This document shows, in pieces, positions 12,179-64,000 of a stretch of 64,000 nucleotides of DNA; the first letter of the stretch is position 1, and the number at the start of each line of letters is the position of its first letter. The notes below the pieces were generated by a model. It saw nothing but the letters and a program-made list of their open reading frames with translations, did no database searches and was not told the origin of the DNA. Position numbers and translations under genes: made by a program. This DNA comes from Candidatus Amesbacteria bacterium RIFCSPLOWO2_01_FULL_49_25 (lineage in GTDB: Bacteria; Patescibacteriota; Microgenomatia; CAZETR01; Amesbacteraceae): contig MEXP01000009.1 of the NCBI GenBank assembly GCA_001773725.1, forward strand, positions 5,073-69,072, written 5' to 3'.

Positions 12179-12194
12179 TCTAGTTGTAAATTTT

Positions 12195-14877: not shown

Positions 14878-17158
<2,281 letters not shown>

Positions 17159-18138: not shown

Positions 18139-18466
18139 TTTTATAAGCGATATTTCTGGAAATTTCCTCTATTTGCCGTTGGAGAGATTTTATACCAACA
18201 TGATTCTGAAAACCCAGATATGCCAATATCATGAAGGCTACTATCGATAAAAGATCCATGGCTCGAGTGACAAACAGCCTGGCTAATATGGGATCTAGTA
18301 TCCGGGGGTTAAGAGCAAAATAGGTGAACGACACCCAAACCAATAACCAGTACACAAACTCTCGGCGAGTAATGTTCCCCTGTTTGCGATGGACGAACGC
18401 CACATATAGCATAAATGCGGCAAACATGACGGCAATGATTTGTATTCCTAGGAGAGCCTCCACCAT
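18113..18466 (-). CDS. Small 4-TM membrane protein, DUF2304-like
   Basis: 117 aa, hydrophobic helices with 'GNITRREFVYWLLVW' spacing; such proteins typically flank DPM1/GtrB-like GT2 genes. Confidence 0.5.
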   Translation of the reverse strand: MVEALLGIQIIAVMFAAFMLYVAFVHRKQGNITRREFVYWLLVWVSFTYFALNPRILDPILARLFVTRAMDLLSIVAFMILAYLGFQNHVGIKSLQRQIEEISRNIAYKNAKTKKRP

Positions 18467-19113
18467 ATAGTATTTGCAAGAATTTTTAGTGCGTCTATTA
18501 TGGACGTGCCTTTGTATTTGTCAATGTAGATGGGTTCGATGGGAAATTCAGTATATTTTAATAGGTGTTTATTTTTTCCCAGCTTGGCAATCATTTCCGT
18601 TTCAACACCATACCGAGGTGATGTCCATTTTAAAAGTTGATATGCCCTGAATGAAAGAGCCCTAAATCCGGATATCAAATCTGAAACGTATACGCCAAAG
18701 AGGACATTGATATAAATTGAGGCTAATTTATTGCCGAAGAGCCTGACGAATGGGGTGTGTAAAGACGGACGGCGCGAACCGATGACCACGTCAAACTTTT
18801 GATTGAGCAGATGGATAAACATGCTTATGTCTTGGGGTAAATGTTGGCCGTCTGTATCCATGAAGATTATAGCCTCGGCTTTGTGAGAGAAAGCGTATTC
18901 AGCGCCGGTTTTTAAGGCAGATCCTTTTCCCAGGTTGACAGGGTGACGAAGCAGAGTGACCGTTTTTGACTGGGTAGGGATTTGGACCGGTTGAACCGAA
19001 CCGTCATCGATAACCACAATATTTAAGTGGGGATGGAGTGAGAGGATAGCCGTTAAGACATCTACAAATCTAGCCCCCTCGTTGTAAACCGGCAATATTA
19101 ACCAAATGTTCAT
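18448..19113 (-). CDS. DPM1-like GT2 glycosyltransferase (polyprenyl-phosphate hexose synthase-like, soluble)
   Basis: 'IWLILPVYNEGARF', 'IVVIDDGSVQP', 'FMDTDGQHLPQDI'; start set at MNIWLIL. Confidence 0.8.
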   Translation of the reverse strand: MNIWLILPVYNEGARFVDVLTAILSLHPHLNIVVIDDGSVQPVQIPTQSKTVTLLRHPVNLGKGSALKTGAEYAFSHKAEAIIFMDTDGQHLPQDISMFIHLLNQKFDVVIGSRRPSLHTPFVRLFGNKLASIYINVLFGVYVSDLISGFRALSFRAYQLLKWTSPRYGVETEMIAKLGKNKHLLKYTEFPIEPIYIDKYKGTSIIDALKILANTIWWRLS

Positions 19114-34474: not shown

Positions 34475-35416
34475 TTACAAATTCTTAATCTCTTTAATTT
34501 CGTAAATGGGCTTTTGGCGAGATTCGAAGTAAACACGAACCATGAGTTCGGACATAAGACCCAACAGAATAAATGACACACCAATAAAAACTAGAAACAT
34601 GGCAATGATAAACATGGGGTTGTTGTGAACGAAGACGCCTAGAAATAATTTACGGTAGACAACTTGGACAAAGGCGGGGACAGAGAGGGCCAGGGAAACT
34701 AGACCGCCGGTGCCAAAGATGTAGGCTGGCTTGGTAGAGTAGGAGTCCAGAAATTTGGTGGTGATAATGTCGATAATAGTTTTGACCGACCGGGAATAAC
34801 CGTATTTGGAACGGCCGTGGGTACGGGGACGGTGACTGACTTCAATTTCTTTGAAGCGGGCTCCGCGCAGAACCACGAGTAGTGAAAGAAGGCGATGGTT
34901 TTCACCATACAAACGCATGTTGGCAAAAATCTCCCGACGAACAATACGTGTCGTACAGCCTAAATCCTTAATGGTGACATGAAAAATTGAACGGATGAGC
35001 CAGTTGGCTATTTTGGAAACAGCAACACGGATCAAGTCGTCGTGGCGGTGTTTGCGCCACCCAAAGATGGCGTCGGTATTGGAATCTAACATATCTAACA
35101 TTTTGAGCAAGTCGGGGGGAGGGTTTTGACCGTCGGCATCGAGAAAAGCGATAAAGTTTCCGCGGCTGTGGTCAATGCCGGCTGAAGTTGCTGCTGTTTG
35201 GCCGTGATTGTGCCAGAAATGAATCATCTTGACGGTAATATTGGGGTGGGGTGCCTGAGGAATAGAGGGGTTATCAGTACTACCGTCGTCTATGTAAATA
35301 ATTTCGGTAGTACCTCGGATCTGGGAGAGGGTGTGAACCAATTCCGAATGCAACTGGGTTAAATTTTCTTGTTCATTGTAAAAGGGAACGATAACGGAAA
35401 GTTTGGGATTGGCCAT
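34475..35416 (-). CDS. GtrB/ArnC/DPM1-like GT2 polyprenyl-phosphate sugar synthase with C-terminal TM helices
   Basis: 'LSVIVPFYNEQENL', 'IIYIDDGSTDN', 'FLDADGQNPP', two C-terminal hydrophobic helices ('LVSLALSVPAFVQVV', 'FIIAMFLVFIGVSFILLGL'). Confidence 0.8.
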   Translation of the reverse strand: MANPKLSVIVPFYNEQENLTQLHSELVHTLSQIRGTTEIIYIDDGSTDNPSIPQAPHPNITVKMIHFWHNHGQTAATSAGIDHSRGNFIAFLDADGQNPPPDLLKMLDMLDSNTDAIFGWRKHRHDDLIRVAVSKIANWLIRSIFHVTIKDLGCTTRIVRREIFANMRLYGENHRLLSLLVVLRGARFKEIEVSHRPRTHGRSKYGYSRSVKTIIDIITTKFLDSYSTKPAYIFGTGGLVSLALSVPAFVQVVYRKLFLGVFVHNNPMFIIAMFLVFIGVSFILLGLMSELMVRVYFESRQKPIYEIKEIKNL

Positions 35417-46993: not shown

Positions 46994-47198
46994 AATCGAA
47001 AGATAAAAGAGAAAAGACTTGGGTTCTGGCCTGATAAAAACCGGTAGTTAATTTGTTTTGAAATATCCTGGAGATAGGCGGTGGGTAATAGCTTCTGCGA
47101 ACAGAGATGGCGTAGATATCAAGATTCGTCAAGGAAAGAAGGCGAAGGTACGTTGATATTGTGAGTACCAAAGCGAGCACAATCCCGAATACTTTCAT
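46965..47198 (-). CDS. Hypothetical small protein (77 aa) with N-terminal hydrophobic segment
   Basis: ATG at 47196-47198 overlaps the TGA stop of the upstream family A gene (ATGA); 'MKVFGIVLALVLTISTYL' looks like a signal/TM helix; no homology recognised; occupies the largest intergenic gap. Confidence 0.25.
   Translation of the reverse strand: MKVFGIVLALVLTISTYLRLLSLTNLDIYAISVRRSYYPPPISRIFQNKLTTGFYQARTQVFSLLSFDYVFRTLGYE
46994..47194 (-). promoter_or_regulatory. Largest non-annotated gap in the minus-strand block (candidate internal promoter / small-ORF region)
   Basis: ~200 bp without a long ORF in the main gene frames between two family A genes; overlapped by the 77-aa ORF. Confidence 0.2.
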
Positions 47199-49405: not shown

Positions 49406-50992
49406 TTATTCTATCATCCTGCCCCAGATTGCTGTCTGAGAGTTTTCGAAAAGCTTTGTCATGCCTAGTTGTGATTCATTGAGAAATGGTCGGTTGCGAT
49501 CAAGGTCGGCTAAGTATATGTAGGAAATTTTATTGGCAGCCAAGAACTGGCGAGCTGAAGCTGGATCGGAGCTAGTGAAAAAATCGTTGACAGTTTGCAA
49601 ACGATCGCGCCAGGGAAATCTCGTGATATCCAGGTTTACCGTATCTTCCAAAAAGGTGGGGTGCTGGGAAAACGCGGCTACGTAGGCAGTGGACTCGTAT
49701 TTGTAGAGCGGCCTGGGAGCTGGGGCATAGGTGTCGGGTTGGGCGGGATATGTCAGAACCGCACCGGGTGGTTGGGTGGATAAAAAGTTGAGAGCGGTAA
49801 GTTCTTCCTGAGATATTTTGGCGGGAGGCTGAGACGGCAGGTAGTGAGGTGAGGTTTGAAAAACAGTCGGAATGGTTAAAAGAGCGATGAATAATGAAGC
49901 AGGAACCGTGGTCTTTGAGACGACTGTTCCCGCCATAATGCCGAGGAAGAATTGGGTATAGTAAAAGAATTGGAGAGTGTTCCATGGGGTTCCCGATTGG
50001 AGAAAAAACATAGGGATTACTAAACCAAGGAGCGAGGCTGAAATGTAAAATATTTTGTCAGGATGATTGCGGAATGAGAGTAACCCGATGGTCCTAGTTC
50101 CAAGATTCCCGACTAGGAAAATCAGCAAAGCGACGATGTAAGCTACTGGCAGCTTGATAAGATTGAGGGTTGATTTGTAGGCCAGCATGGCTTGATAAAA
50201 CCTAGACCAGTCGAGACGGTCTGATAAGCCCATCATTGTTTCCAGGTACCAGCCGGGCTGCCAAACCAGCAGCTTAGAGCTGTTTGCTAATAGCTGATAG
50301 TTTATGGGCAGATATATCAGCAGCCCTATTATTAATGAGATAAAAAATTTCTTATTTTTAAAGGCTGAAAAAAATATTCCTGAAAATGCCAGTAATCCGG
50401 CGTAGATTTTGACTTCAGGAAGAAGACCCAAAATAATACCCGCGAGGATGTAGCGATGACTACGAAGTAATAGTAATAATAATAGCAATAGGATAAGAGA
50501 CAGCGCGTAGGGGGGGTTTAGAAGAGTGGAGATGGCTTGCTGGGACCAAAAGGTTGATTCTCCCTTGCCCAATACCCAACCCAGACTGCCACCAAAGTAG
50601 GTAAAAAAAACCGACCAATTATTGGTGGTTAGTTTGAAAACCAGATAGCCGGTTAAAAAGGCCATAATTGGTGGAAGAATTTGAAAGTAAAGGTTGACCG
50701 TGGGAATTCGAGTGAGAACGTGCAGACTGGCGACTAAAAGATCAAAGCCGAGGTGATAATTTTGGATTTTCTCCCCAACAAAAATGGGCATTTCGAAAGT
50801 TCCTCGCGATAGGCCTTCGATGATAGCTAGGTGCCAAACTCCGTCGTGACCATTGGGACCCCAAAAACCCATGCCAAAGTCATAAACCAGCCCGCTTTTG
50901 ATCATGGTGGCTGACCAAATAATCGTGCCTATAGTTATCAATAACCAGTGCTTATTTCTTAGAATCCAGGGCATGGTAAAAATGACGGACAT
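49406..50992 (-). CDS. Large polytopic membrane protein with C-terminal soluble domain (unknown; glycan polymerase/GT-C candidate)
   Basis: 'GMGFWGPNGHDGVWHLAIIEG' loop, poly-Leu segment, ~12 TM, ~130-aa hydrophilic C-terminus. Confidence 0.4.
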   Translation of the reverse strand: MSVIFTMPWILRNKHWLLITIGTIIWSATMIKSGLVYDFGMGFWGPNGHDGVWHLAIIEGLSRGTFEMPIFVGEKIQNYHLGFDLLVASLHVLTRIPTVNLYFQILPPIMAFLTGYLVFKLTTNNWSVFFTYFGGSLGWVLGKGESTFWSQQAISTLLNPPYALSLILLLLLLLLLRSHRYILAGIILGLLPEVKIYAGLLAFSGIFFSAFKNKKFFISLIIGLLIYLPINYQLLANSSKLLVWQPGWYLETMMGLSDRLDWSRFYQAMLAYKSTLNLIKLPVAYIVALLIFLVGNLGTRTIGLLSFRNHPDKIFYISASLLGLVIPMFFLQSGTPWNTLQFFYYTQFFLGIMAGTVVSKTTVPASLFIALLTIPTVFQTSPHYLPSQPPAKISQEELTALNFLSTQPPGAVLTYPAQPDTYAPAPRPLYKYESTAYVAAFSQHPTFLEDTVNLDITRFPWRDRLQTVNDFFTSSDPASARQFLAANKISYIYLADLDRNRPFLNESQLGMTKLFENSQTAIWGRMIE

Positions 50993-52430
50993 CAGCTATT
51001 AATGCCGGACCGACTAAAATAAAAATGGCTATAGAAAATACCAATGCCGAGGTGGTGATGTTGACAGCAAGAAAATAAATGTTTGCGGGTAAAAGCCGGG
51101 CTAGAGTTTGGGTTACCGGCAGCATACAAATGGTGGCGATAAGCGGTTTGAGGACGCTTGAGGAAAGATCAAACTTGGTAATTTTCTTGACTATATATAT
51201 GGGGATGATCGACGTAAATGAAATGATTGCAGTTGCCCAGGCGACTCCATCGAATCCGTAACGAATGGCCATTAAGGGCGATAAGATCCAGGCTAATGCC
51301 GTCCACATGATCATGAGATACGTATTTATTTTGACTTTTCCTAAAGCATTGAGGACATTGGTGAGAGGGGTAGAAATAGCGGCCCAGGCACTATTGAAAC
51401 AATATAGCGCAAGTGCCAAAAGGGCAGGTTGCCATTTGGCATAGCGGGGATAAATCTGGATTATGACGGGCACCAAAAGAGTAATCCCGGCGAGGATGGG
51501 GAATGTAGCCAGGGAAACGAAGAATAGGGTTTTTTCGACGGCTTTTTTCAATTCGACGGGGTGATCCTGAAGACGGGAAAAGCCGGGAAAGGTAACTTTG
51601 GTAACGTTGTCCATGATAAAGCGCAAAGGTTTTTGAGAAAGAGTCTGGGCGGAGCCAATGAGACCAACGCCACTGGCGCCGATTATTTTCCACAGAAAAA
51701 CTATTAATAAACGGTCTTTAATAACCGCTATAAAAGTGTTTAATTGGAACGGAATTCCGAAGGTGAGTAATCGTTTTAACGAGGGGCGAGAAAAACTAAA
51801 GCCCATTTGCCATGGGGACAGAAGATAAATCATGGCGGTGCCAACTAGTCCGCGTAAAAGCACTGCCCAAACATATGAGAGAATCCCCTGCCCTTTTACG
51901 GCCAAAAAGATTAAGGAACCATAAAAAACTAAGGTCTCGACTATTTCGACGCCAGCTAGAATCTCGAATCGCAGGCGTCTTTCCAACACAATTGAAGGGA
52001 TGCTTTTGAGTGAAGCCAAAAAAAACCCTGCCAATAGGCTGTACAAAAGCAGAACTCCGTGGGGGGACAGGTCGTAGTACGAAATAAGTCTGGGAGAAAG
52101 AATGAGAGTGACAACTATGAGCAGTGACACAAGGACTTGCTGGATAGTAAATGTGGTACGCAGGTCCGAAAGTGTGATTTCATCCTTCTTCTGAATGAGA
52201 GAGGCGGCTAAGCCGATGTCTGAAAAGTAGCTCAAAATGGCGACTAATTCATTGATGACTACAAAGAGACCAAACTCGGCTGGGCCTAGATAGCCCCAGA
52301 GGATGGCTAGACCGACAGTGGAGATAATTTGGATAAGAAATGATCGACTAATGAGGGTGACAACTCCAGTTAGAGATCTCGCCTTGACCGTAGCCAAATC
52401 TACATCCCCGAGTGTTACTTCCGCATCCAT
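50952..52430 (-). CDS. Wzx-like oligosaccharide flippase (MOP/PST superfamily, polysaccharide biosynthesis protein)
   Basis: ~14 TM, N-terminal 'KARSLTGVVTLISRSFLIQIISTVGLAILWGYLGPAEFGLFVV' and mid-protein 'LKRLLTFGIPFQLNTFIAVIKDRL' typical of PST-family flippases. Confidence 0.75.
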   Translation of the reverse strand: MDAEVTLGDVDLATVKARSLTGVVTLISRSFLIQIISTVGLAILWGYLGPAEFGLFVVINELVAILSYFSDIGLAASLIQKKDEITLSDLRTTFTIQQVLVSLLIVVTLILSPRLISYYDLSPHGVLLLYSLLAGFFLASLKSIPSIVLERRLRFEILAGVEIVETLVFYGSLIFLAVKGQGILSYVWAVLLRGLVGTAMIYLLSPWQMGFSFSRPSLKRLLTFGIPFQLNTFIAVIKDRLLIVFLWKIIGASGVGLIGSAQTLSQKPLRFIMDNVTKVTFPGFSRLQDHPVELKKAVEKTLFFVSLATFPILAGITLLVPVIIQIYPRYAKWQPALLALALYCFNSAWAAISTPLTNVLNALGKVKINTYLMIMWTALAWILSPLMAIRYGFDGVAWATAIISFTSIIPIYIVKKITKFDLSSSVLKPLIATICMLPVTQTLARLLPANIYFLAVNITTSALVFSIAIFILVGPALIADVRHFYHALDSKK

Positions 52431-54061
52431 ATGGATATTTTACGGTTAAAGGACAATAAAAGTAGAGACCAGGATATTAGAGAAAGCGTGTTGCCCAGGG
52501 TGCGGATGGGGGTGTTGGTGAATTTGGCCACAATTTCATGACGCCCGGTGGGAAGTGATAACTGCGGACGGCCCAGTAGTGGATCTAGATTATAGTTTTT
52601 CACTTCTGCACCGTCTATCCAGTATCTCCAGCCGGGAAAATAATAAGTTTGCAGTTCGACCAAGGATTGGGGAGAAGTAATGTCAAGAGAATATTTTTGT
52701 AAGTTGGAGGTTTTGATAATTCGGATGAAAGTTCCCAACCCTTGGCTAATATTGAGGTCTGCTCCGACCGGATCGGCTGGAGGAGCGGGAGCATAAATTG
52801 GGAGATAATCGAAGATGCCGGAAGTTACTAATAACTGCCAGGACTTACCGGAAAATTTTTGGGCATCGGTCATGGACGGGTACCATTCTCTGGGACGAAA
52901 ATAGTTCCCATTCATAAATATTAATAAGCTTATTATTAAGGGGACAAAGATTTTTTTGTTGGTGGCCATCATGATAGCTCCGGAGAGAAATGAGGCGGTG
53001 AAGACGGCCAGAGTGAGGAAGCGCCAGGGGAATTGGAGAAATTCGAGCGGTTTTAGCACGAGCCATATGGGAGTGGATTTGGAATGGCTCATGAATAATG
53101 CACCGAGGGTTATAAGAACCAGAATTATGATTAATGATTTATGGTTTACGAATTTTTTGGAGAAAATAAACAACAGGACTAGGATTGGAACTATCCAATA
53201 TAAAAAACCTAGGGCGAAGGACATAGTGTCGGCAGGGCCCAAGATGGATGATCCGTAGCCCCAATTGATGTTGAGAAAGATCTGCTTTAAGTCCAGAAAA
53301 TGGGCCAGGTAGTTAAAATAACCGGAAGTAAGAGTCCAGACAGATACGTATTTAGTTTCGAAAATAACAGGTAAGGTAAAGAAGGCGGCAAGACCCAGGG
53401 ACCACAGAACTGCCAAAAACAAATTTCTAATTGACCTAACTGACCTAAACTTTGCAAGCCAGAAAAGGCACCAGAGAATAAGAACGGGGGTGAAGATCAT
53501 GAGCATGGGATTGTGAGAAAGCATGAGGGCGGCAACGGAGAGGGAGACGAATGGGATCCATTTGGTTTTTTGGTCTTTTATGAGCCGATAAGTGGTCCAA
53601 AAAATGAGCGGATAGAAAGCCATGGCCCAAAATTCGTTGACGGCTGCCCGGACCCAAAAATCCACGGAGTGATATGGCGCGTAAGTGTAAAAAGCTGCAG
53701 AAACGAATCCTCCCCAGCGACCCCAAAATTCCCGAGCCAGCAGGTACATGTTCAAGGCAGTGACTATAAATCCAAAAATCCCGACGACCTTTACTACGTC
53801 GATGTATTGAAACCCGAGCCACACAAATGGCTGGCCGATTAAGTATGGTAAGGGCGGATAATAGTTGAACAGTGGATAGCCGAAACCATAGCCCATATCC
53901 GGAACCCAGCGGCAGGGAATCTGACCGTCTTGAAAACATTTGTTCAGTTCAAGTTGACGAAAAGCTTGCAAATCGTCGTGCATGGAAAAATAGCCCTTTT
54001 GAAATAAAAGAGCAAATGAGGGAAGAATTAAAATTAATAAAATTAGTAAATCTTTTTTCAT
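52415..54061 (-). CDS. Polytopic membrane protein family D (YfhO/PTPS-related-like GT-C candidate)
   Basis: 'MHDDLQAFRQLELNKCFQDGQIPCRWVPDMGYGFGYPLFNYYPPLPY'; paralog of 26770-28365. Confidence 0.5.
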   Translation of the reverse strand: MKKDLLILLILILPSFALLFQKGYFSMHDDLQAFRQLELNKCFQDGQIPCRWVPDMGYGFGYPLFNYYPPLPYLIGQPFVWLGFQYIDVVKVVGIFGFIVTALNMYLLAREFWGRWGGFVSAAFYTYAPYHSVDFWVRAAVNEFWAMAFYPLIFWTTYRLIKDQKTKWIPFVSLSVAALMLSHNPMLMIFTPVLILWCLFWLAKFRSVRSIRNLFLAVLWSLGLAAFFTLPVIFETKYVSVWTLTSGYFNYLAHFLDLKQIFLNINWGYGSSILGPADTMSFALGFLYWIVPILVLLFIFSKKFVNHKSLIIILVLITLGALFMSHSKSTPIWLVLKPLEFLQFPWRFLTLAVFTASFLSGAIMMATNKKIFVPLIISLLIFMNGNYFRPREWYPSMTDAQKFSGKSWQLLVTSGIFDYLPIYAPAPPADPVGADLNISQGLGTFIRIIKTSNLQKYSLDITSPQSLVELQTYYFPGWRYWIDGAEVKNYNLDPLLGRPQLSLPTGRHEIVAKFTNTPIRTLGNTLSLISWSLLLLSFNRKISIWMRK

Positions 54062-54069
54062 AATGACTT

Positions 54070-55575
54070 CTATTTAACTGGAATGACCTGGAAAAATAGC
54101 AGGTATTCACGGGTGGTGTCGGGGCGAGCACTTTTGGGGTAACTGGCTATTAACTTAAGGCCTATGGATTCGGGGTCGAAAACATGGAAACGACTGGAAT
54201 TGACGACCAAAAAAACCTGGTTATCGACTAGTGAGTTGGTGAGTTTCTCGTCGACGGAATCGATCCAGACACCGACACCAATAATCCGGGCGTTGGGAAC
54301 GTCGTTGAGGTACATCTGAAGGGCGGAAAAAGGGGTACCAAAAAAGCCTTCGGAGCCGACTAGAACCGATCCGGACTTGGCGGCTTGGCGAAGATAGGCG
54401 GAAACCTCACGAATCCCCTGCCCCGCCGTCCATTCCTCCAAATACCCCGAGCGCTCTATGCGGGAAAGAGGAGCATCTTCGGGGCGGCTGAGTAATTGAT
54501 AATCGATGGCAAGTGAGGGGAAAAAAATCAGAGCCGAGGCGACATAAACTAAAAGATGTTTCTGGGTCTTTTGACTGATGTGTTCAATAGCGTGGGCGAT
54601 AAGGATTACTGCGAAAGGAACGGTAAATAACAAATAACGAGCGGTGAATGACTTGGCGATAAAGGATTGGGCGACAACCGGAATAAGCCACCAGGCGGCC
54701 AGGACTAGACGAGAGCGCCAATGGGTTAAACGACCCTCGATAAGGCCCCAAAATGCAAATAATAGACCTATGGGAGTCAACAGATACAAGTAAAAGCTGA
54801 AAGAATCTTTGAGATGCGGAATCAGTGGATCTAAGGGATGACGCAAAACTTCTGTCAACGAATAAACATAATCTTGATTGCGAAGGGCAATTTGGTGAAA
54901 TTCGGGACCGAGACGCAGTATGTTGTACATCCCAAAAGAAATGCAAAAAGTAATAGTCAAAAGGCAAAATGATTTAAAAATAGTTTTGAATTGAAAGTTG
55001 GGTAAGAAAATCAGAAGAGTTGGAGACATGACTACCGCAAAGATGGCCGGGGATTTTGTCAGCCAGGCAAACCCAAGGGCGAAACCGGCTAACTGGGACA
55101 TGTCCAGACGAAGGTGAGAGACGGAAAGATAAGATAAGATAAAGGCCCAAAGTACAAACATGGTCAGCAAACTATCCGCCAATGCCATTCGGTCAAAAAA
55201 GACCAGGTAAGGCAGGGCGGCCGATAAAACTGTCGCAACTGAAGTGAGACGCCAGTTTTTAAAAAGAAGATAAGAAGCTAGCGCTATCCCGACCACAGTG
55301 CCTAAGCCGGCAATAGCCGAAAGTGTGCGAGCGGCTACTAGAGGATCGAAAATTATTTTTAGGAAGGGAATAGTGAGCCACATAAAAAGGGGTTGTTTGC
55401 CGTCGGATAAGGGTAAGAACCGAAGGGAGGCTTCGGCTCGCATAACCTGACTCCAGCGGATGTAGATCGATTCATCGGCAAAAACCGGCAAGGAGTTGAG
55501 GTTCCAAAAGCGAAGGAGAGCAGCTAGAAGAAGAACAGCCAGACTGAAGATAATCAGCCGCTTATGATTACTCAT
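54070..55575 (-). CDS. GT-C-fold membrane glycosyltransferase, ArnT-like (family A variant, 'FADESIYIRW' loop)
   Basis: 'LPVFADESIYIRWSQVM' mirrors the ArnT DExRYA loop; ~12 TM; C-terminal soluble domain. Confidence 0.7.
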   Translation of the reverse strand: MSNHKRLIIFSLAVLLLAALLRFWNLNSLPVFADESIYIRWSQVMRAEASLRFLPLSDGKQPLFMWLTIPFLKIIFDPLVAARTLSAIAGLGTVVGIALASYLLFKNWRLTSVATVLSAALPYLVFFDRMALADSLLTMFVLWAFILSYLSVSHLRLDMSQLAGFALGFAWLTKSPAIFAVVMSPTLLIFLPNFQFKTIFKSFCLLTITFCISFGMYNILRLGPEFHQIALRNQDYVYSLTEVLRHPLDPLIPHLKDSFSFYLYLLTPIGLLFAFWGLIEGRLTHWRSRLVLAAWWLIPVVAQSFIAKSFTARYLLFTVPFAVILIAHAIEHISQKTQKHLLVYVASALIFFPSLAIDYQLLSRPEDAPLSRIERSGYLEEWTAGQGIREVSAYLRQAAKSGSVLVGSEGFFGTPFSALQMYLNDVPNARIIGVGVWIDSVDEKLTNSLVDNQVFLVVNSSRFHVFDPESIGLKLIASYPKSARPDTTREYLLFFQVIPVK

Positions 55576-56314
55576 ATTTACCCAGTATACCGTAGAGGCG
55601 GATCTTGAAGGTATCGAGGGCCATCTGGAACGGCTCTTTCCAAATATTTAACCTGTCGGACCAGTATTTGATCCAACTGACCGGAACTTGGGCTATGGCA
55701 TAGCCGTATTTCTGGGCTAAAAACAGCACTTCCACATCGAAGGCTCCCATATAGCCACCGGCAATTTCCCCTTGGGGTAGACACACTTTAAGTTTGGAGA
55801 ATATCTTTCGGGCGGCAGTATGAGTAAATGACTTGAAGCCGCATTGGGAATCCATAATGCCGGGCAGGGCAACAACTTGAACTAGTGTCACAAAAGCCCA
55901 ACTGCGGATTTTGCGAACCAGGGTATCTTTGGCGGTTTGAGTTCGCACACCGATAACCACGTCGGCTCCGGATTTGTGAGCGGAAATGAATTCGGCTACT
56001 TGATGCAGGGGGGTAGACTGGTCGAAATCAGTAAACAAGATATATCTCCCTTTCGCGGCCAACATCCCGGCTGTGACTGCCGCCGCTTTGCCGCCATGGG
56101 GAATTTGTAAAACTTTGATATTCCGGTTCATTACTTTCGAGAGCAAGTTATGCGTGTCGTCCGTTGACCCGTCGTCTACGAATATAAGTTCCCAAGGGTA
56201 TTTTTGCTGTTTTAAGTACTTCAAGGGTAGATCCAAAACCCCAGCTTGAAAATTAGACGATTCGTTGTAAGCCGGGACAACTACAGAAAGATAAATCGGA
56301 TTATTTTTGTTCAT
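55568..56314 (-). CDS. DPM1-like GT2 glycosyltransferase (polyprenyl-phosphate sugar synthase-like, soluble)
   Basis: 'IYLSVVVPAYNESSN', 'LIFVDDGSTDDT', 'ILFTDFDQSTP'. Confidence 0.8.
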   Translation of the reverse strand: MNKNNPIYLSVVVPAYNESSNFQAGVLDLPLKYLKQQKYPWELIFVDDGSTDDTHNLLSKVMNRNIKVLQIPHGGKAAAVTAGMLAAKGRYILFTDFDQSTPLHQVAEFISAHKSGADVVIGVRTQTAKDTLVRKIRSWAFVTLVQVVALPGIMDSQCGFKSFTHTAARKIFSKLKVCLPQGEIAGGYMGAFDVEVLFLAQKYGYAIAQVPVSWIKYWSDRLNIWKEPFQMALDTFKIRLYGILGKYE

Positions 56315-57006
56315 GATTCATGCTCCGCTAATTGTTTGGCAAATTTTAGTTGGTTAATAAAGTTTATTAATCCAAGAAATTGGGGGTAAGAGACAATCAT
56401 TTTTATGTCTTCCATGAGACCTGATAATCCTTTCTTCCATATTTTGTTGACTTGGCCAACTCCATTCAATGATACAGACGCAACATTGTATTTGGCAAAG
56501 AAGACGGTATTCATTGCCGGTTCAATGAGATACTTGGGCTGGGAAAAGATTTCCGGATGAAGGTGAAGTATTCTTTTTTTGATGACCCTTTCGCCGGTAT
56601 AGGCCAAGTTGAATCCGATCCAGTCCATCCATATAACGTCGTGGGTTCGATGGCCTAAAACTAAGTCATTATTTCCCTCGAAAAATTTGTTGGCTAATTT
56701 ATTCAAATGATAAGTTTTGAAACCTGTTAGATCTGCGTCTACGAAGGCTATAAATTCCCGGTGGGTGTTTTCCAGTCCGGTTTTAAGAGCCGCTGCTTTA
56801 CCTAAATTTTTGACATGATTAATTAGTGTGATTCCTGAAATTTTGGCCAAGAGTCGCCTTGAATTGTCAGTGGAACCATCATTGACGACGATGATTTCTT
56901 TGACATATTGTGATTTTTTGACCTGGGAGATTATTTCTGATACTCGAGTGCTTTCGTTATAGGTTGGAATGACAACAGAAAGAAGCGGACTAAATTTTGT
57001 AGGCAT
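56311..57006 (-). CDS. DPM1-like GT2 glycosyltransferase
   Basis: 'LLSVVIPTYNESTRV', 'IIVVNDGSTDNS', 'IAFVDADLTGF'; start set at MPTKF. Confidence 0.8.
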   Translation of the reverse strand: MPTKFSPLLSVVIPTYNESTRVSEIISQVKKSQYVKEIIVVNDGSTDNSRRLLAKISGITLINHVKNLGKAAALKTGLENTHREFIAFVDADLTGFKTYHLNKLANKFFEGNNDLVLGHRTHDVIWMDWIGFNLAYTGERVIKKRILHLHPEIFSQPKYLIEPAMNTVFFAKYNVASVSLNGVGQVNKIWKKGLSGLMEDIKMIVSYPQFLGLINFINQLKFAKQLAEHES

Positions 57007-57742
57007 GGGTGAGGGAACGGAAGCGGACAAGAAGAAGCCCTGTGAGTCCTGCGATTGCATCTTTGACAAAGCTCACTCGGCGAGACTCCTGGTGACGCCA
57101 GGAGACGGGAACTTCGACAATCTTGTAGCCCATTTTCCTGCCTAAGTAAAGCATTTCTACATCAAAACCAGGGTTAACTGCTGGCCCCGAAATTACGCGG
57201 GGGGGAGTAATTTTGTTCATGATCTGGAAGATCCTTTTGCCAGCTTCCGCTGTAAAGGCCTTGAAGCCGCATTGTGTATCTTTAATTGGCAGCTGGAGAA
57301 TGAGAGCTCGCATAATTACGTTTCCGTAAGCAAGAACTTTCCTAAATAAAGGGGCGTTGGGACGACCGGAGCGTGAACCGATAACTATGGAGTAGCCAGA
57401 TCTAAGTTTTGGTAAAAATTTATCCAGCTCAGTTATGGGCGTGGCTTGATCCATATCAGAAAATAAAATAATTTCGCCTTTGGCGGAAAAAACACCGGTG
57501 GCTATACCAGCGGCTTTGCCCATATGAGGATTGTCTATAATGGTGAGTTCGCTGTGGCGATTTGCCAGCTCATGTAAGAGCGAAGATGTGTTATCGGAGG
57601 AACCGTCGTTGACTATTATTACTTCCCAAGTGAAATTCTGTTCCTTGAGGTAATCAATGACAACATTAAGCGACCCGCGATGAAGGTTATCAGCTTCGTT
57701 ATAAGCAGAAATGACGACTGATAGGTATGGTTGATCGTTCAT
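56990..57742 (-). CDS. DPM1-like GT2 glycosyltransferase
   Basis: 'PYLSVVISAYNEADNL', 'VIIVNDGSSDNT', 'ILFSDMDQATP'. Confidence 0.8.
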   Translation of the reverse strand: MNDQPYLSVVISAYNEADNLHRGSLNVVIDYLKEQNFTWEVIIVNDGSSDNTSSLLHELANRHSELTIIDNPHMGKAAGIATGVFSAKGEIILFSDMDQATPITELDKFLPKLRSGYSIVIGSRSGRPNAPLFRKVLAYGNVIMRALILQLPIKDTQCGFKAFTAEAGKRIFQIMNKITPPRVISGPAVNPGFDVEMLYLGRKMGYKIVEVPVSWRHQESRRVSFVKDAIAGLTGLLLVRFRSLTHAYKI

Positions 57743-59189: not shown

Positions 59190-60620
59190 TTATTCAAATT
59201 TATGACGGAAGCGGCGCTGAACTAAGAGGGGACCGATTTGATGTTCTTCTTCGACAGATGAGAAAAAGCTTTGACGGACGAGCCAGGTGTATCTAAGCTG
59301 AGGATGCTCATCGTCGGGTTCTACTATAGTGTAAAGGCGAGTGACCAGCCCGGTATCGGGAAAACGACGGTACCAGGTGGTACCGCGCCAGAGAAAGACA
59401 TAATCATAGGCGTGGGGAATAATCGGCGGCACATAGGCATCCGTATTAAAAGCCCGGTCTTTGGCATCTGTGTAGACCCAGTCTACTGCCTGGAGAATGG
59501 GGGAAAGGGAAATATAACCCGGAAAAGGACGGGAGAGCAGTGCAAAAGTCTGGGAAATGTTCTGGTAGAGAAAGACTGCTAAAAAGGAGACTAAAACCAA
59601 GCGATTTAAGCGAATGGCCAAGACGGAAAAAATGATAACAAAAACTAAATAAAACCCAGTGAAATAATAGTCATAAACGTTACCCTCATTGCCATGAAAA
59701 AAGAGCATGCCGACTAATGGTGTGAAAAACAGCACTAAAAGGAGTTGGAAGTGATTTGAGAATTTGCGAAATAAGGAAAGCCCACAAAGGGGGAGAAATA
59801 TATAAGCCGGAAGAAGACTGGAGGGGAACAATTTGGATCCGAAGGTTTGGAGATAAAAAGGCAGACGTACTATAAGAGTGTCCAAAAAAGAGAGTTGGAA
59901 ACTTTTGTCGGCAACAAAAAATTTGAGCAAATTTTGACTAATAATTCCCTGATGCCGGATATCAAAAAGAATCTGGGGAGCGAAACTGAGAAAGATGGCG
60001 GACAGGGAGAGAAGAAAAATTTTAAAACCGGGGAAAAGTGATCTATTGAAAGCTAAAAAAATAATAATGGCGGGTAGGATAAAAATTTCCGTGGCACTAC
60101 CGAACTGCATGGATTGGCCAAAAAGAAAACCGACCCCTATCCAGGCCCATTTCTTTCCGTCTATGACTTTAAATAAGAAGTAGACCAGAAGCATGTTGAT
60201 AAGAAACATGGGGGTAGGATTGCTTAGCCAGCGGGAAGCGTGCATCAGAGGATATGATATGGCCGTGATGAATACGGCGAGCAGGCCGGCACGGGAACCG
60301 GCGATTTTAGTGGTGAGGTGGCAAACCAAAAAAGCTGCCAGGACAGTGGTTGAGCTTAAGAAAACGGCTGGCCAGACGGGGTTCCCGTTTCCCAACCAAT
60401 AAGCCGGGGTGATCAGCCAATAGTACCAGGGACCGCGGAATATACCGGAGATGCCGGTGACCGGGCCCACCAGAAAGAATTTGCCGTTGTGGATAAAGTC
60501 CCAAATAACCTTTGCGTCGCGACCCTGGTCGTACCAGAAACCCAAGAAATCCTGCGTCCGATAGACACGAAGAAAAAGAGCCAAACCCAAAATAGCTGCC
60601 AAAATTATTTTATGTTTCAT
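59190..60620 (-). CDS. GT-C-fold membrane glycosyltransferase, ArnT-like (family B)
   Basis: 'FWYDQGRDAKVIWDFIHNG...GIFRGPWYYWLITPAYWLG'; start set at MKHKIIL giving ATGA overlap with next gene. Confidence 0.7.
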   Translation of the reverse strand: MKHKIILAAILGLALFLRVYRTQDFLGFWYDQGRDAKVIWDFIHNGKFFLVGPVTGISGIFRGPWYYWLITPAYWLGNGNPVWPAVFLSSTTVLAAFLVCHLTTKIAGSRAGLLAVFITAISYPLMHASRWLSNPTPMFLINMLLVYFLFKVIDGKKWAWIGVGFLFGQSMQFGSATEIFILPAIIIFLAFNRSLFPGFKIFLLSLSAIFLSFAPQILFDIRHQGIISQNLLKFFVADKSFQLSFLDTLIVRLPFYLQTFGSKLFPSSLLPAYIFLPLCGLSLFRKFSNHFQLLLVLFFTPLVGMLFFHGNEGNVYDYYFTGFYLVFVIIFSVLAIRLNRLVLVSFLAVFLYQNISQTFALLSRPFPGYISLSPILQAVDWVYTDAKDRAFNTDAYVPPIIPHAYDYVFLWRGTTWYRRFPDTGLVTRLYTIVEPDDEHPQLRYTWLVRQSFFSSVEEEHQIGPLLVQRRFRHKFE

Positions 60621-62071
60621 ATATTGTGAACCAAACGCAGAACTTTTACACCCCAGGGGAAAGTCCATTCCTGGTCAATTTTGGACCAACCGAAGGCGGC
60701 GATTTCCCATAACGGGTTGTTAATTGGTTCACAGTCACTTTGTTCACAAATGACGAATAGTTGATCGGTCAATTTGTCATGGATGGTGTAATAAGGGGCA
60801 TCATTCAATTGCATAAAGTAGCGATAACTGGCGTCGTAGTTGTTTTTGGCGAGCAAGGCTAAGTTGAAAGGGGAATTTTGGGACTGCGATTTGATGAAGT
60901 TTGCTATTTCTATGGTGCGTGCCAGCTGATTGTTCGGTGAATTGCGGAAAGGGTTATTTTGAAGGGAGACAAAGAACAACGGTAGAACCAGCAGGATTCC
61001 CATAAACGCCAGTTTGGTTTTTTGGAACAGCTGGTTCAGAACGAAACCTAAAAGAAGAAAAATTGCCGGAAAAATAAAACCGTAATAATGATCATAGATG
61101 TGTTGTTTGTACAAACCGAGACCAATCAGGCCAAATCCCAACCAAGAAATAACGAACCAGGCGGCGGGTGATAAGCGGCGGCGAATGGCGTAAAGGATGG
61201 CCAAATCAAACAAACCGAAGGCCGCCCACTTGCCCACTAAGGAATTTTTGCCGGCGAGAAGACTCGTTGCCATGTCTTGCCAAATAGGCCAGAGATTGGG
61301 AACGGCTTTATATACTTTGAAATTGACAGTGGTTTGACGGTCTGTAAAAAAGGTTTTCATGGAGGAATAATTTTGCCAGCCGTGGCGTAAATCAAAGATG
61401 ACCAAGGGCGACATGAGTAATATCAAAATCCCAAACCCCATGAGCCAATATTTTTTGTTTGACTTCTTATCCGAGCTTAAGAATAAAAATAAAAGAATTG
61501 TGGGAAGTAGGAGAAAGCCTAAATAGTGAGAGTTGAGGACAAACGCAAAAGAAACTGCTGAGATGATTAGCCAGCGCCAGCGGCTGAAACGCCAGATATT
61601 CCAAACTCCATACATGGTTAAAAGAGCAAAAAAGGCCATGATATTGGGATTCCACGAAGAACGGGAGTAAATAATAACAGTGGGTGAAAGAGCGTACAAA
61701 GCTGAAACGGTCAATCCCGGCCAGCGTCCAAACCACGAGCGGCTGATCCACCATAAGAGCGCTACGGTTAACAACCCGAGTAAGGCCACAAAAACTGCAG
61801 GGCCAACGGGAGATAGGTTGAATAAAGCCAGAGAGGGGGCGGCTAAATAATAATAGAGAGGACCGAGATACATGTTGCCGATGGAAGTACCTGGACCAAT
61901 GGCGGGAAAGTGTTTGAGAGCGACAATGCCCTTCATAACAAGGGCGTCACGGCCTTCGTCGCCCAGAAAAGTCATGTATTGGTCTATTTTGTAAAGACGC
62001 AAGAAGGCTCCGAGGAGCAAAATGGAAATGATTGCGATTTTTTCTAGTCTCGTTATCGAAGTTTTTTCCAT
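60617..62071 (-). CDS. GT-C-fold membrane glycosyltransferase, ArnT-like (family B)
   Basis: 'TFLGDEGRDALVMKGIVAL...NMYLGPLYYYLAAPSLALF'. Confidence 0.7.
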   Translation of the reverse strand: MEKTSITRLEKIAIISILLLGAFLRLYKIDQYMTFLGDEGRDALVMKGIVALKHFPAIGPGTSIGNMYLGPLYYYLAAPSLALFNLSPVGPAVFVALLGLLTVALLWWISRSWFGRWPGLTVSALYALSPTVIIYSRSSWNPNIMAFFALLTMYGVWNIWRFSRWRWLIISAVSFAFVLNSHYLGFLLLPTILLFLFLSSDKKSNKKYWLMGFGILILLMSPLVIFDLRHGWQNYSSMKTFFTDRQTTVNFKVYKAVPNLWPIWQDMATSLLAGKNSLVGKWAAFGLFDLAILYAIRRRLSPAAWFVISWLGFGLIGLGLYKQHIYDHYYGFIFPAIFLLLGFVLNQLFQKTKLAFMGILLVLPLFFVSLQNNPFRNSPNNQLARTIEIANFIKSQSQNSPFNLALLAKNNYDASYRYFMQLNDAPYYTIHDKLTDQLFVICEQSDCEPINNPLWEIAAFGWSKIDQEWTFPWGVKVLRLVHNI

Positions 62072-62754
62072 AGCCGAAATAGGTCGACAAAACTTTTGAT
62101 AATGACATTCAAGTTGGCCCCAGTGCCGGAACCTGTTTTTCGGGGATAATGATGGACTCCAATTTCGATTATTTTGAATCCTGATTTTTTGGCTTTAATA
62201 AGGAACTCGCTAGAAATAAAGGCTCCCCGCGATGATTCCAGTTTGGGGATAGTGTCAATAACTTTTTTGGAAATAAGTTTAAATCCGCAGTCGATGTCCC
62301 GGATATTTAAACCAAAGAGTAAATTTACTGCTGTTTGCCAAAGTAGAGTATTAGCTTTTCGGTAAAAAGGGACTTGCCTTTTTAAGTAATAGCCAACAAC
62401 TAAGTCAGCCCCAGTTTGCTTTTGATTGTGAATAAAATTTGTAATTTCGGAAAAATCAAATTGGCCATCGGAGTCTGTAAAAGCTATCCAGGGAAATTTG
62501 GCGGCGTATAGTCCGCTTCTTAGGGACGCGCCGTAACCTTGATTGGGATTATGAGTGACGACTTTGATTCGTGCATCCTGGCGGACTAGTTTGGCGGCAA
62601 TTTCAGCTGTCCGGTCTTTGGATCCGTCGTTGACGATTATTATCTCCCAGTTTTTGACGACTTTTTCCAAAATTGATTTGGCCTTAACAACGGTATTTTC
62701 TATTTGTTCTTGTTCGTTGAAGGCCGGAAAAAAGACCGATAGCTCATCAAGCAT
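62053..62754 (-). CDS. DPM1-like GT2 glycosyltransferase
   Basis: 'LSVFFPAFNEQEQI', 'IIIVNDGSKDRT', 'IAFTDSDGQFD'. Confidence 0.8.
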   Translation of the reverse strand: MLDELSVFFPAFNEQEQIENTVVKAKSILEKVVKNWEIIIVNDGSKDRTAEIAAKLVRQDARIKVVTHNPNQGYGASLRSGLYAAKFPWIAFTDSDGQFDFSEITNFIHNQKQTGADLVVGYYLKRQVPFYRKANTLLWQTAVNLLFGLNIRDIDCGFKLISKKVIDTIPKLESSRGAFISSEFLIKAKKSGFKIIEIGVHHYPRKTGSGTGANLNVIIKSFVDLFRLWKKLR

Positions 62755-63837: not shown

Positions 63838-64000
63838 TCAGGACTTCGGGGCATTGGTCTTCGTTTTCCAAATGAATTTGTTGTAGATGTAGTAGTTGAC
63901 GATGAGAACGATAAAGATGGCGCCGAAGTAGAAAAATTGGATAATGACGGCACTGCCGCGGGCAAAAAACTCGCCGATACGCAGGATGACAAACTGAATG
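63838..64000 (-). CDS. GtrA-family small membrane protein, 3'-partial (runs off window end)
   Basis: Minus-strand frame ending in TGA at 63838-63840 translates '...FVILRIGEFFARGSAVIIQFFYFGAIFIVLIVNYYIYNKFIWKTKTNAPKS*', matching the GtrA C-terminal VNYxxNxxWxF pattern; replaces the low-complexity ORF-track call 63786-63992. Confidence 0.5.
   Translation of the reverse strand, partial: IQFVILRIGEFFARGSAVIIQFFYFGAIFIVLIVNYYIYNKFIWKTKTNAPKS

Follow-up and report, generated by a model that had tools for sequence, protein, structure and literature searches.

The window analysed here, a stretch of 64,000 nucleotides from a Candidatus Amesbacteria genome, contains three tandem open reading frames, A, B and C, that a preliminary description made from the sequence had picked out. 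All three are present on the minus strand, every motif quoted for them is found in the sequence, and Pfam search matches each to the GT2 profile PF00535 (A, E 2e-23; B, 9e-27; C, 6e-21). In the outline below, PI-GT is the name used in the GtrB paper for the GtrB/ArnC/DPM1 class (PMC4728340).

55568..56314, minus strand: GT2-A, 248 aa, DXD at D96/D98, candidate PI-GT without transmembrane (TM) segments
56311..57006, minus strand: GT2-B, 231 aa from its ATG, DXD at D90/D92, atypical small GT2
56990..57742, minus strand: GT2-C, 250 aa, DXD at D96/D98, candidate TM-less PI-GT and paralog of A

The genes are tightly packed: A and B overlap by 4 nt and B and C by 17 nt, A overlaps the downstream gene GT-C4 by 8 nt, and a gap of 2 nt separates C from GT-C3. 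GenBank gene calls for the trio are identical in three Amesbacteria MAGs, each under the name 'hypothetical protein'; a TTG start at 57069 in place of the ATG would extend B by 21 aa. TM prediction finds no TM segments in A, B or C, and neither a small partner gene (DPM3- or GacJ-like) nor a TM anchor adjoins the trio. The three genes are not equivalent, the outer pair A and C differing from the middle gene B. The original reading of three diverged, DPM1-like paralogs holds for A and C, which share 39% identity (phmmer E 4e-56) and have GtrB, ArnC and DPMS as solved relatives, but fails for B, which is 24% identical to A. The GC content of B is 0.385, versus 0.46-0.47 in A and C.

The trio is embedded in a run of genes for GT-C enzymes and other polytopic proteins:

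50952..52430, minus strand: Wzx-type flippase, PF13440 E 1.6e-45, candidate translocator of lipid-linked sugar
52415..54061, minus strand: GT-C5, polytopic, weak PTPS_related and PMT_2 matches
54070..55575, minus strand: GT-C4, PMT/PMT_2-type GT-C directly downstream of A, PF13231 and PF02366
57745..59187, minus strand: GT-C3, directly upstream of C, about 11 hydrophobic segments, paralogous to both GT-C2 and GT-C1
59190..60668, minus strand: GT-C2, PMT_2 GT-C, PF13231 E 7.6e-10
60617..62071, minus strand: GT-C1, PMT_2 GT-C, PF13231 E 4.5e-15, overlapping the end of GT2-D by 19 nt
62053..62754, minus strand: GT2-D, TM-less PI-GT candidate, ArnC 2.3e-16 over residues 4-213, followed by GtrB and DPMS as solved relatives

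The order GT-C3, C, A, GT-C4, GT-C5, Wzx is repeated in three other Microgenomates loci (L001, L002 and L003) at 42-75% identity, and B is missing from this block in all three. Orthologs at the same syntenic position are 69-74% identical for A, 48-73% for GT-C3 and 65-74% for GT-C4; the values are 62-70% for GT-C5, 57-61% for Wzx and 42-46% for GT-C2, also in synteny and a member of the block. In L001 and L002 the C ortholog is 70% identical and lies immediately upstream of that of A. In the same two loci the ortholog of D and the PMT_2 GT-C downstream of it form a single fused protein (732 aa in L001, 710 aa in L002), whose C-terminal portion is 54-73% identical to GT-C1; the best 120 homologs of D are standalone proteins. 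The fusion links the PI-GT and GT-C enzyme classes, and together with the conserved synteny it backs the proposed coupling of GT2s to GT-C enzymes. Farther afield in Patescibacteria, about 12 loci have an A/C-type gene next to same-strand genes for GT-C or polytopic proteins, in about 10 of them on either side, and most patescibacterial loci outside the block hold a single A/C-type copy beside GT-C genes. GT-C flanking is absent around the non-CPR homologs examined, and those from Acidobacteriota and further phyla, 30-37% identical, do not adjoin GT-C genes; the family is thus not tied to GT-C partners everywhere, which weakens the PI-GT reading of A and C. With 17 GT2s among about 56 genes, about one run of three GT2s is estimated to arise by chance, and a second trio lies at 42920-45451. 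The trio is nonetheless meaningful, since C and A keep their syntenic position in relatives.

Nine of the 17 GT2s in the window cluster with conventional GT2s and eight are of the polyprenyl-phosphate type by sequence (seven without B), with a ninth of that type cut by the right edge. Beyond A to D, these are:

11120..12178, minus strand: DPMS/AglJ-like PI-GT, about 4 C-terminal TM segments
12219..13373, plus strand: eighth PI-GT-like GT2, PF00535 at residues 228-391 of a long ORF
18448..19113, minus strand: PpgS-like TM-less PI-GT candidate, NCBIfam PpgS 2.8e-28
34475..35416, minus strand: TM-anchored ArnC/GtrB-type PI-GT, about 2 C-terminal TM segments
63841..64000, minus strand: last 53 codons of a GT2-GtrA_DPMS_TM fusion gene truncated by the right edge

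The preliminary description had counted seven such GT2s, missing the eighth and the truncated ninth. Six of its seven belong to the class by their solved relatives or the PpgS profile and do not cluster with glycan-extending GT2s; the exception is B. ArnC, GtrB or DPMS are the best solved relatives of A, C, D and the genes at 11120-12178 (PfDPMS 1.6e-7 over residues 5-207; AglJ 5.9e-24) and 34475-35416 (ArnC 4.3e-40 over residues 5-310, GtrB 9e-31; NCBIfam ArnC 1.7e-46, under the equivalog cutoff). TM prediction bears out the C-terminal anchors proposed for these last two, and no GtrA Pfam match is found in the C-terminal part of 11120-12178. The gene at 18448-19113 covers positions 2-220 of 226 of the PpgS profile, essentially its full length, though below cutoff, and has no PDB sequence match at 1e-6 or better. 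The ORF of the eighth gene opens at 11985 but overlaps an opposite-strand gene, so translation probably begins near 12219; it matches AglJ (2.7e-25) and ArnC (over 7-211 of 316), with DPMS and ArnC as top PDB matches, and its N-terminal extension is weakly similar to the methyltransferase at 14849-15565 (E 3.6e-6). The fragment at 63841-64000 is 66% identical to residues 329-381 of a GT2+PF04138 protein of L001 and represents the end of a ninth PI-GT with a GtrA-like module. The earlier figure of about 20 GT-C enzymes agrees with 20 genes that either have Pfam support themselves or are paralogs of a gene that has it; three more polytopic proteins are left unassigned. Two GT4s and a Wzm/Wzt ABC exporter are also encoded.

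The best PDB sequence matches of A are GtrB, ArnC and DPMS, and C matches PfDPMS best (1.9e-13), ahead of GtrB and ArnC, in an alignment that passes through the GSR, FRK and D..GF motifs. NCBIfam profiles of lipid-phosphate transferases (PgfS, ArnC, AglJ, PpgS and a halophile Dol-P hexose transferase) reach residues 165-215, whereas those of conventional GT2s mostly end near residue 100-125 (PgaC extends to 147 in A); no NCBIfam equivalog cutoff is reached, which weakens the PI-GT reading. In Foldseek searches with the AF2 model of A (pLDDT 93.5), the top 23 matches are all ArnC, GtrB or DPMS over about 250 columns, with TMq of 0.58-0.75 and an identity of just 19-25%. ArnC, DPMS and newer cryo-EM GtrB entries score 0.69-0.75 and older GtrB crystal chains 0.58-0.64; WrtF and other glycan-extending GT2s come next at 0.57-0.63, overlapping the GtrB crystal values. 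GpgS, with a TM-score of 0.62-0.65, is not far under the PI-GTs, a further point against the assignment.

Residues R124, R134 and S138 of A are the equivalents of R117, R131 and S135 of PfDPMS, D155 is that of GtrB D157, and the equivalent of GtrB R122 is also present; the acceptor roles of such residues are described for PfDPMS and GtrB (PMC5526996, PMC4728340). C retains R124, R134 and D155 and has Ala at the position of PfDPMS S135, which tells somewhat against it. All 65 homologs compared keep R124 and D155 unchanged, and the family motif D[ST]QCGFK is likewise invariant in homologs of A. Interface helices are predicted in A at 132-148 and 226-243, with a modest hydrophobic moment of 0.24-0.29 that also weakens the reading; the helix of C around residues 130-147 is amphipathic, with a moment of 0.53. 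The lack of a TM anchor and of a partner gene beside the trio weighs in the same direction. PfDPMS without its TM domain remains active and membrane-bound (PMC5526996), and GacI functions with a separate small membrane protein, GacJ (PMC8035078).

Gene B had been taken for a third synthase, so that A, B and C would make three different lipid-linked monosaccharides, a reading we consider unlikely. B keeps the DXD, a 'GHR' motif and C-terminal helices, is translationally coupled within the operon, and its model finds GtrB as top Foldseek match by E-value; its distant homologs carry a full Dpm1-like consensus (QDADLEYDP...GSR...LTD..TGYK), some of them named dolichol-phosphate mannosyltransferase by JGI. 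However, about 17 residues at the site of interface helix 1 are deleted in the B subclade, 'AYTGER' replaces 'D..CGFK' so that the Asp equivalent to GtrB D157 is missing, and the 'GHR' arginine varies within the subclade. Pfam and NCBIfam GT2 profiles match only the N-terminal half of B, and the subclade profile aligns with solved structures essentially in the nucleotide-binding half. GpgS (GT81), whose acceptor is soluble, gives the B model its highest TM-scores (TMq 0.59-0.68; best 0.68, rmsd about 4-5 Å), versus 0.55-0.60 for GtrB. Homologs above 40% identity number only about 5 among 5.8 billion clusters; B homologs occur in housekeeping contexts, the closest with no GT-C nearby. A DPM1-like assignment of B is thus unsupported, its fold fitting GpgS as well as GtrB. 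B also resembles GpgS in the short link between strand 5 and the 'GE(R/Y)' motif and in a weak NCBIfam match in its N-terminal half, but the sequence similarity is limited to the nucleotide-binding half and B lies in a glycan operon; nothing in the sequence or fold comparison points to a 3-phosphoglycerate acceptor. B appears to be an atypical, divergent GT2 inserted later between C and A in the operon.

It is more doubtful still that A and C are subunits of one hetero-oligomeric enzyme making a single donor. GtrB forms a tetramer (PMC4728340), A and C invariably occur side by side and are both kept across genera, and their nucleotide- and metal-binding motifs are closely alike; yet the catalytic residue set is complete in each, and the single copies beside GT-C genes in most other patescibacterial loci indicate that a lone copy suffices. 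Least probable is a role of A and C as conventional GT2s of the cytoplasm, lengthening an oligosaccharide carried on lipid pyrophosphate or adding sugar to a polymer (teichoic acid, for instance): the nine conventional GT2s, two GT4s, Wzx and Wzm/Wzt exporter do form a classical machinery for cytoplasmic repeat-unit assembly, A and C are TM-less, and WrtF, RmlT and chondroitin polymerase are among the structural matches of A (TMq about 0.55-0.64), but the uniformly PI-GT top matches, the retained arginines and both interface helices, the gene order tying A and C to GT-C genes rather than to conventional GT2 clusters, and the fusion of the sister gene D to a GT-C all argue against it.

We consider it probable that A and C are TM-less PI-GTs that make lipid-linked sugar donors for the flanking GT-Cs, with B a later arrival. 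Both would be peripheral-membrane enzymes at the cytoplasmic face, each loading polyprenyl phosphate, probably undecaprenyl phosphate, with a single sugar taken from a nucleotide sugar. Catalysis would proceed via a metal bound at the DXD, the acceptor phosphate being gripped by R124 and R134 (in A also S138) and the lipid positioned between the two interface helices. The lipid-linked monosaccharide would then be flipped, with the Wzx of the block or the GtrA-like domain at the right edge of the window as candidates; Wzx-type flippases have been proposed for systems with TM-less enzymes such as GacI (PMC8035078). On the outer face the donor would be used by GT-C3 and GT-C4, and probably by others of the GT-Cs in the window, on a surface glycan, protein or lipid as final acceptor.

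Known systems offer partial parallels. With GtrB, ArnC and CsbB, A and C share a GT-A GT2 domain, DXD, acceptor-phosphate arginines and two juxtamembrane helices (PMC4728340, PMC8035078), and in such three-component systems too the genes adjoin GT-C users of the lipid-linked sugar, with a flippase near. Unlike A and C, those enzymes have two TM helices each, an architecture found in the window only at 34475-35416; they form one-to-one pairs, whereas the window holds 8-9 such GT2s and about 20 GT-Cs and no standalone GtrA gene. The TM-less synthases (human-type DPM1, the catalytic domain of mycobacterial Ppm1, PpgS and streptococcal GacI) share a domain of about 240-260 aa, interface helices and the want of an anchor of their own, but no counterpart of DPM2/DPM3 or GacJ is found beside A or C; the likeness to DPM1 and Ppm1 is presumed from general features of those proteins. 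Several homologs of A (50-65% identity) carry the KEGG-derived JGI name 'dolichyl-phosphate beta-glucosyltransferase', as for ALG5; eukaryotic ALG5 is membrane-anchored, unlike A and C, and, the name being automatic, glucose specificity is no more than a lead. In the mycobacterial envelope, many GT-Cs use polyprenyl-phosphate mannose and decaprenyl-phosphate arabinose, and GT-C paralogs likewise cluster with polyprenyl-phosphate sugar synthases, which by analogy suggests polymer building outside the membrane. Ppm1 of M. tuberculosis, a synthase fused to a membrane partner, recalls the GT2::PMT_2 fusion, although its partner is no GT-C; mycobacteria also belong to another phylum and have other GT-C families, those of the window being mostly PMT_2-like. 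More than a dozen mycobacterial GT-C enzymes are served by two polyprenyl-phosphate donors, so the earlier argument that about 20 GT-Cs need many donors is not compelling, and the sequence does not separate the proposed heteropolymeric extracytoplasmic glycan from glycosylated proteins or lipids.

The A/C pair would be an old tandem duplication retained in related genera, so a difference between the two enzymes in the sugar or the GT-C partner is probable. Taken as a whole, the locus represents an enlarged multi-component transmembrane glycosylation system, of a kind already known but with new members.

The window, from a Candidatus Amesbacteria genome (Microgenomates, Patescibacteria), has a GC content of 0.44, and its genes are nearly all on the minus strand, among them a tandem trio of GT2 genes termed A, B and C:

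55568-56314, minus strand, gene A, 248 aa
56311-57006, minus strand, gene B, 231 aa
56990-57742, minus strand, gene C, 250 aa

The three open reading frames and all the motifs quoted for them in the preliminary description are present, and each protein matches PF00535 (E = 2e-23 for A, 9e-27 for B and 6e-21 for C). B begins at an ATG at 57006, the start also used by GenBank, and its frame is open as far as a TTG at 57069. The genes are packed as in an operon: a gap of 2 nt separates C from a GT-C gene at 57745-59187 (GT-C3), C and B overlap by 17 nt, B and A by 4 nt, and A shares 8 nt with a second GT-C gene at 54070-55575 (GT-C4). No hydrophobic or transmembrane (TM) segment was found in A, B or C, and the gene listing of the window has no small partner gene beside the trio. 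Three Amesbacteria MAGs in GenBank carry all three under consecutive locus tags, with no other names than 'hypothetical protein' or 'Glycosyltransferase 2-like domain-containing protein'. The paralogy of A and C is clear (39% identity, phmmer E = 4e-56), whereas B matches both at E of about 1e-13 and is 24% identical to A; the initial view of the trio as diverged paralogs holds for the A/C pair and not for B.

Sequence, together with the predicted structure of A, places A and C in the polyprenyl-phosphate glycosyltransferase (PI-GT) class of GtrB, ArnC and DPMS (DPM1). The nearest solved sequences are GtrB (1e-12), then ArnC and PfDPMS for A, and PfDPMS (1.9e-13), then GtrB and ArnC for C; PfDPMS is the solved DPMS used here for residue roles. 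The AlphaFold2 model of A adopts a GT-A fold (pLDDT 93.5), and its top 23 Foldseek matches are all ArnC, GtrB or DPMS, with around 250 aligned columns. The TMq values are 0.69-0.75 for ArnC, DPMS and the newer cryo-EM GtrB, 0.58-0.64 for older GtrB crystal chains, 0.62-0.65 for GpgS and 0.57-0.63 for glycan-extending GT2s such as WrtF. PI-GTs feature a DXD metal site (D94/D96 in GtrB, DAD in PfDPMS), an acceptor-phosphate Arg after strand 5 (R122 in GtrB, R117 in PfDPMS) a conserved Asp (D157 in GtrB) and two interface helices, the first of which carries R131 and S135 in PfDPMS (PMC4728340, PMC5526996). The DXD site reads D96-F-D98 in A and D96-M-D98 in C, and both Asp residues are invariant in 65 homologs. 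In alignments, the acceptor-phosphate residues correspond to R124, R134 and S138 in A and to R124, R134 and an Ala at the Ser position in C; R124 is invariant in the 65 homologs of A and C. The equivalent of GtrB D157 is D155, found in 'DSQCGFK' in A and 'DTQCGFK' in C, and it is invariant in the same homologs together with C158, G159, F160 and K161; the 'D..GF' region of C aligns with 'KDPVSGF' of PfDPMS. In the A model, helices 132-148 and 226-243 lie where ArnC, GtrB and DPMS have their interface helices, and helix amphipathicity, expressed as hydrophobic moment, is strong in C (0.53) and modest in A (0.24-0.29). The TM-less state of A and C has precedents in PfDPMS, which without its TM domain is still membrane-bound and active (PMC5526996), and in GacI, which works with a separate membrane protein (PMC8035078). 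The class assignment draws on structure ranking, profile coverage and residue checks.

The surroundings of the trio are conserved in loci of two other Microgenomates, namely L001 from GCA_964633995.1 and L002 and L003 from Microgenomates Gr01-1014_16. The shared block (42-75% identity) runs in the order: the GT2 gene D (62053-62754), GT-C1 (60617-62071), GT-C2 (59190-60668), GT-C3, C, A, GT-C4, GT-C5 (52415-54061), Wzx and a membrane protein without family. B is absent from this block in L001, where the C and A orthologs are adjacent, and its slot in L002 and L003 holds a toxin-antitoxin pair instead. Gp49/HTH toxin-antitoxin-like pairs occur inside the glycosylation operon of Microgenomates Gr01-1014_16 at 8994-9979 and 13918-14435 of L002 and at 4959-5944 of L003, and one such pair sits exactly between the C and A orthologs, in the place taken by B in the window. 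The C/A junction looks like a recurrent insertion point. The GC content of B (0.385 overall, GC3 0.397) is lower than that of A and C (0.46-0.47). Only about five homologs of B with more than 40% identity were found among 5.8 billion clusters, and the two that were located lie among housekeeping genes with no GT-C nearby.

B is a real and probably active GT2 whose DXD site is intact, and constitutes an insertion of uncertain function. GT2 profiles match it in the N-terminal, nucleotide-binding half only. Relative to Dpm1-like homologs, about 17 residues at interface helix 1 are missing from B and its subclade, which carry 'AYTGER' in place of 'LTD..TGYK', with the loss of the GtrB D157 equivalent; the B model (pLDDT 94.6) has just two short helices at the deletion (125-129 and 132-135). 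The Arg after strand 5 is present in B as 'GHR' (R120) but varies in the subclade (GYP, GEV, GQF), where G138, R140 and E162 are invariant. By TM-score the B model is closest to glucosyl-3-phosphoglycerate synthase (GpgS; best 0.68, range 0.59-0.68), with GtrB giving 0.55-0.60 and ArnC and DPMS 0.57-0.64. A search of PDB sequences with a B-subclade profile was non-discriminating and matched essentially the nucleotide-binding half alone. It is unlikely that B is a PI-GT like its neighbours: GtrB is its top Foldseek match by E-value and its distant homologs have the full Dpm1-like consensus, but the loss of the helix and Asp, taken with the subclade, structure and context data, leaves a DPM1-like label for B unsupported.

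The C orthologs in the related loci are 70% identical to C and just 38-40% to A, and the converse applies to the A orthologs; the A/C duplication is therefore older than these genera, in which both paralogs persist. Joint retention of adjacent copies is what subunits of a single hetero-oligomeric enzyme might display, while A and C each possess a DXD site and R124 of their own, and we regard such an enzyme as improbable. An A/C-type gene has same-strand GT-C or polytopic neighbours in about 12 more distant patescibacterial loci, and in about 10 of these it has them on both sides. Flanking GT-C genes were not seen at the loci examined in Acidobacteriota and other phyla. The Acidobacteriota homologs of A and C (L016-L025 and others; 30-37% identity) have an internally conserved neighbourhood of their own with no adjacent GT-C, consisting of a gene of ~350-390 aa upstream and minus-strand genes of ~370 and ~450 aa downstream. 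That A and C are conventional glycan-extending GT2s is improbable. NCBIfam profiles of lipid-phosphate transferases (PgfS, ArnC, AglJ, PpgS and the halophile Dol-P hexose transferase) reach residues 165-215 in A and C, while conventional GT2 profiles mostly end near residue 100-125, with the exception of PgaC (147 in A).

The window holds 17 GT2 genes, nine of which are conventional, matching only families such as TuaG, WcaA, rhamnosyltransferase, MftF and EpsD. In addition to A, C and D, which matches ArnC across its full length (2e-16), the following resemble PI-GTs:

34475-35416, minus strand, TM-anchored PI-GT type (ArnC 4e-40, two TM helices included)
11120-12178, minus strand, PI-GT type with about 4 TM (PfDPMS 1.6e-7)
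18448-19113, minus strand, PI-GT type (PpgS profile 2.8e-28, full length)
11985-13373, start likely near 12219, plus strand, eighth PI-GT-like GT2 (DPMS/ArnC/AglJ-like GT2 domain)
63841-64000, minus strand, ninth, a GT2-GtrA_DPMS_TM fusion cut by the right edge (last 160 nt, the C-terminal 53 residues; 66% identical to the L001 ortholog)

The polyprenyl-phosphate synthase reading proposed at the outset applies to A, C and the four other GT2s then named, and is not supported for B, which lacks the helix 1 segment and the conserved Asp; the count of seven such genes had included B and overlooked the eighth and the edge-cut ninth. The latter carries the sole GtrA-like module seen at the locus, and a Pfam search found no GtrA match in the C-terminal TM region of 11120-12178. 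The 18448-19113 protein has no PDB sequence match at 1e-6 or better. The eighth gene has an N-terminal extension of ~150-220 aa, weakly similar to the methyltransferase at 14849-15565, and the long open reading frame from 11985 overlaps the opposite-strand gene 11120-12178 at its 5′ end by ~190 nt. No protein reached a curated NCBIfam equivalog cutoff (ArnC, PgfS, PpgS, AglJ, halophile Dol-P hexose transferase), the best bit scores being 64 for A (PgfS, cutoff 500), 63 for C, 99 for the 18448 gene (PpgS, cutoff 370) and 159 for the 34475 gene (ArnC, cutoff 529). No sugar specificity can therefore be derived from NCBIfam, and none of the genes is an ortholog of a named enzyme. The automatic JGI name of several A homologs, 'dolichyl-phosphate beta-glucosyltransferase', is taken as no more than a lead on sugar specificity.

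A direct link between this GT2 class and GT-C enzymes is provided by D, whose protein is 100% identical to one from Candidatus Amesbacteria bacterium RIFCSPHIGHO2_02_FULL_47_9. In two of the related loci, its ortholog and that of GT-C1, a PMT_2 GT-C, are joined in frame:

L001 3957-6155, fused GT2::PMT_2 gene, 732 aa
L002 3271-5403, fused GT2::PMT_2 gene, 710 aa

Such fusions are direct evidence that the GT2 class of D works with GT-C; they tie a donor synthase straight to its GT-C user, and so aid enzyme pairing in loci of this kind. In the window the two genes are separate and overlap by 19 nt (62053-62071) at a run of six A residues, where one added A would give the fusion. An assembly error, with one A missing, was rejected as the default explanation, since every one of the best 120 D homologs is a standalone protein; a programmed -1 frameshift at the A6 run was considered, with nothing in its favour. 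A divergently transcribed PIG-V-like gene (62788-63828, plus strand) is conserved beside D and GT-C1 in the relatives, with 63-72% identity.

About 20 GT-C genes had been noted in the preliminary description, and 20 are indeed supported by Pfam or paralogy: paralog groups of 7, 3, 2 and 4, the gene at 54070-55575, one GT87/ALG6-like gene and two PIG-V-like genes. Three further polytopic proteins have no family assignment. The group of seven is PMT_2-like (21986-32649 and 45464-48799, minus strand; pairwise E 1e-19 to 1e-83) and includes tandem runs of three, then two, interrupted by a PTPS_related-like gene (26770-28461) and the GT87/ALG6-like gene (28341-29573); one member (29570-31072) also has a weak STT3 N-terminal match. 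The PIG-V-like (GT76-type mannosyltransferase) membrane proteins, at 19118-20224 (minus strand) and 62788-63828, are distant paralogs of one another. A second tandem GT2 trio of the same layout (42920-45451, minus strand) is entirely conventional, with the close paralogs 42920-43669 and 44555-45451 (E = 4e-38, related to 21207-21986) flanking a different GT2 (43662-44558). Also encoded are Wzx, a Wzm/Wzt ABC exporter, two GT4s, two sugar epimerase/dehydratase-type enzymes, four or five methyltransferases, one acetyltransferase and one AsnB-type amidotransferase. The Wzm/Wzt-type ABC-2 pair (112-2392, minus strand) includes a weak match to the Wzt C-terminal carbohydrate-binding domain; the locus thus has an ABC-transporter route as well as Wzx. 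The AsnB-type glutamine amidotransferase of the asparagine synthase family (32652-34472, minus strand, 606 aa) is encoded by the next gene downstream of the TM-anchored ArnC/GtrB-type gene 34475-35416, an arrangement that hints at an amidated sugar or other modification step.

The best-supported reading of the locus, to which enzyme class, residue conservation, synteny and gene fusion contribute, is an expanded version of multi-component transmembrane glycosylation, in which a lipid-sugar synthase, a flippase and a GT-C act together (PMC8035078). PI-GT and GT-C genes are adjacent at both ends of the trio, in an order conserved in the three related loci, and flippase candidates are the Wzx at 50952-52430 in the conserved block and the GtrA_DPMS_TM module of the edge-cut gene. 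We infer the lipid, sugars, flippase and acceptor of this scheme: cytoplasmic PI-GTs would load single sugars onto polyprenyl phosphate, the lipid-linked sugars would be carried across the membrane by a flippase, and GT-C enzymes would pass them to an outside acceptor. It had been argued that about 20 GT-C enzymes would need many donors. This does not follow. Many GT-C enzymes of mycobacteria share a few donors; still, seven to nine synthases could plausibly reflect either several donors or several dedicated pairs.

The mechanism is established biology and the trio is no new type of system, with one of its three members misfitting the label; A, C and their kin add uncharacterised members to a known enzyme class and a known system type. 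No description of such a class assignment or locus in Patescibacteria or CPR was found in the literature searched (GT-C, ArnT, dolichyl-phosphate). The TM-less synthases, which are small and soluble-looking, should be easy to express and test. What is unusual is how large an array of GT-C genes surrounds the trio in a bacterium with a small genome, rather than the trio itself. Placing A, C and five or six other GT2s among the polyprenyl-phosphate sugar synthases offers a working model of this very GT-C-rich CPR locus of 64 kb. Tentatively, it is possible that Microgenomates like this Amesbacteria lineage assemble a complex surface heteroglycan, or glycosylate their surface proteins heavily, for the most part outside the membrane, with ~20 GT-C enzymes drawing on 7-9 different polyprenyl-phosphate monosaccharides made mostly by TM-less synthases; A and C would differ in sugar, and B would represent a GT2 subclade that is new, acts on a non-lipid acceptor and was recruited into the operon. 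Such a reading would amount to a strategy like that of mycobacteria in a bacterium with an ultra-small genome, where synthase and GT-C are sometimes joined in one polypeptide.
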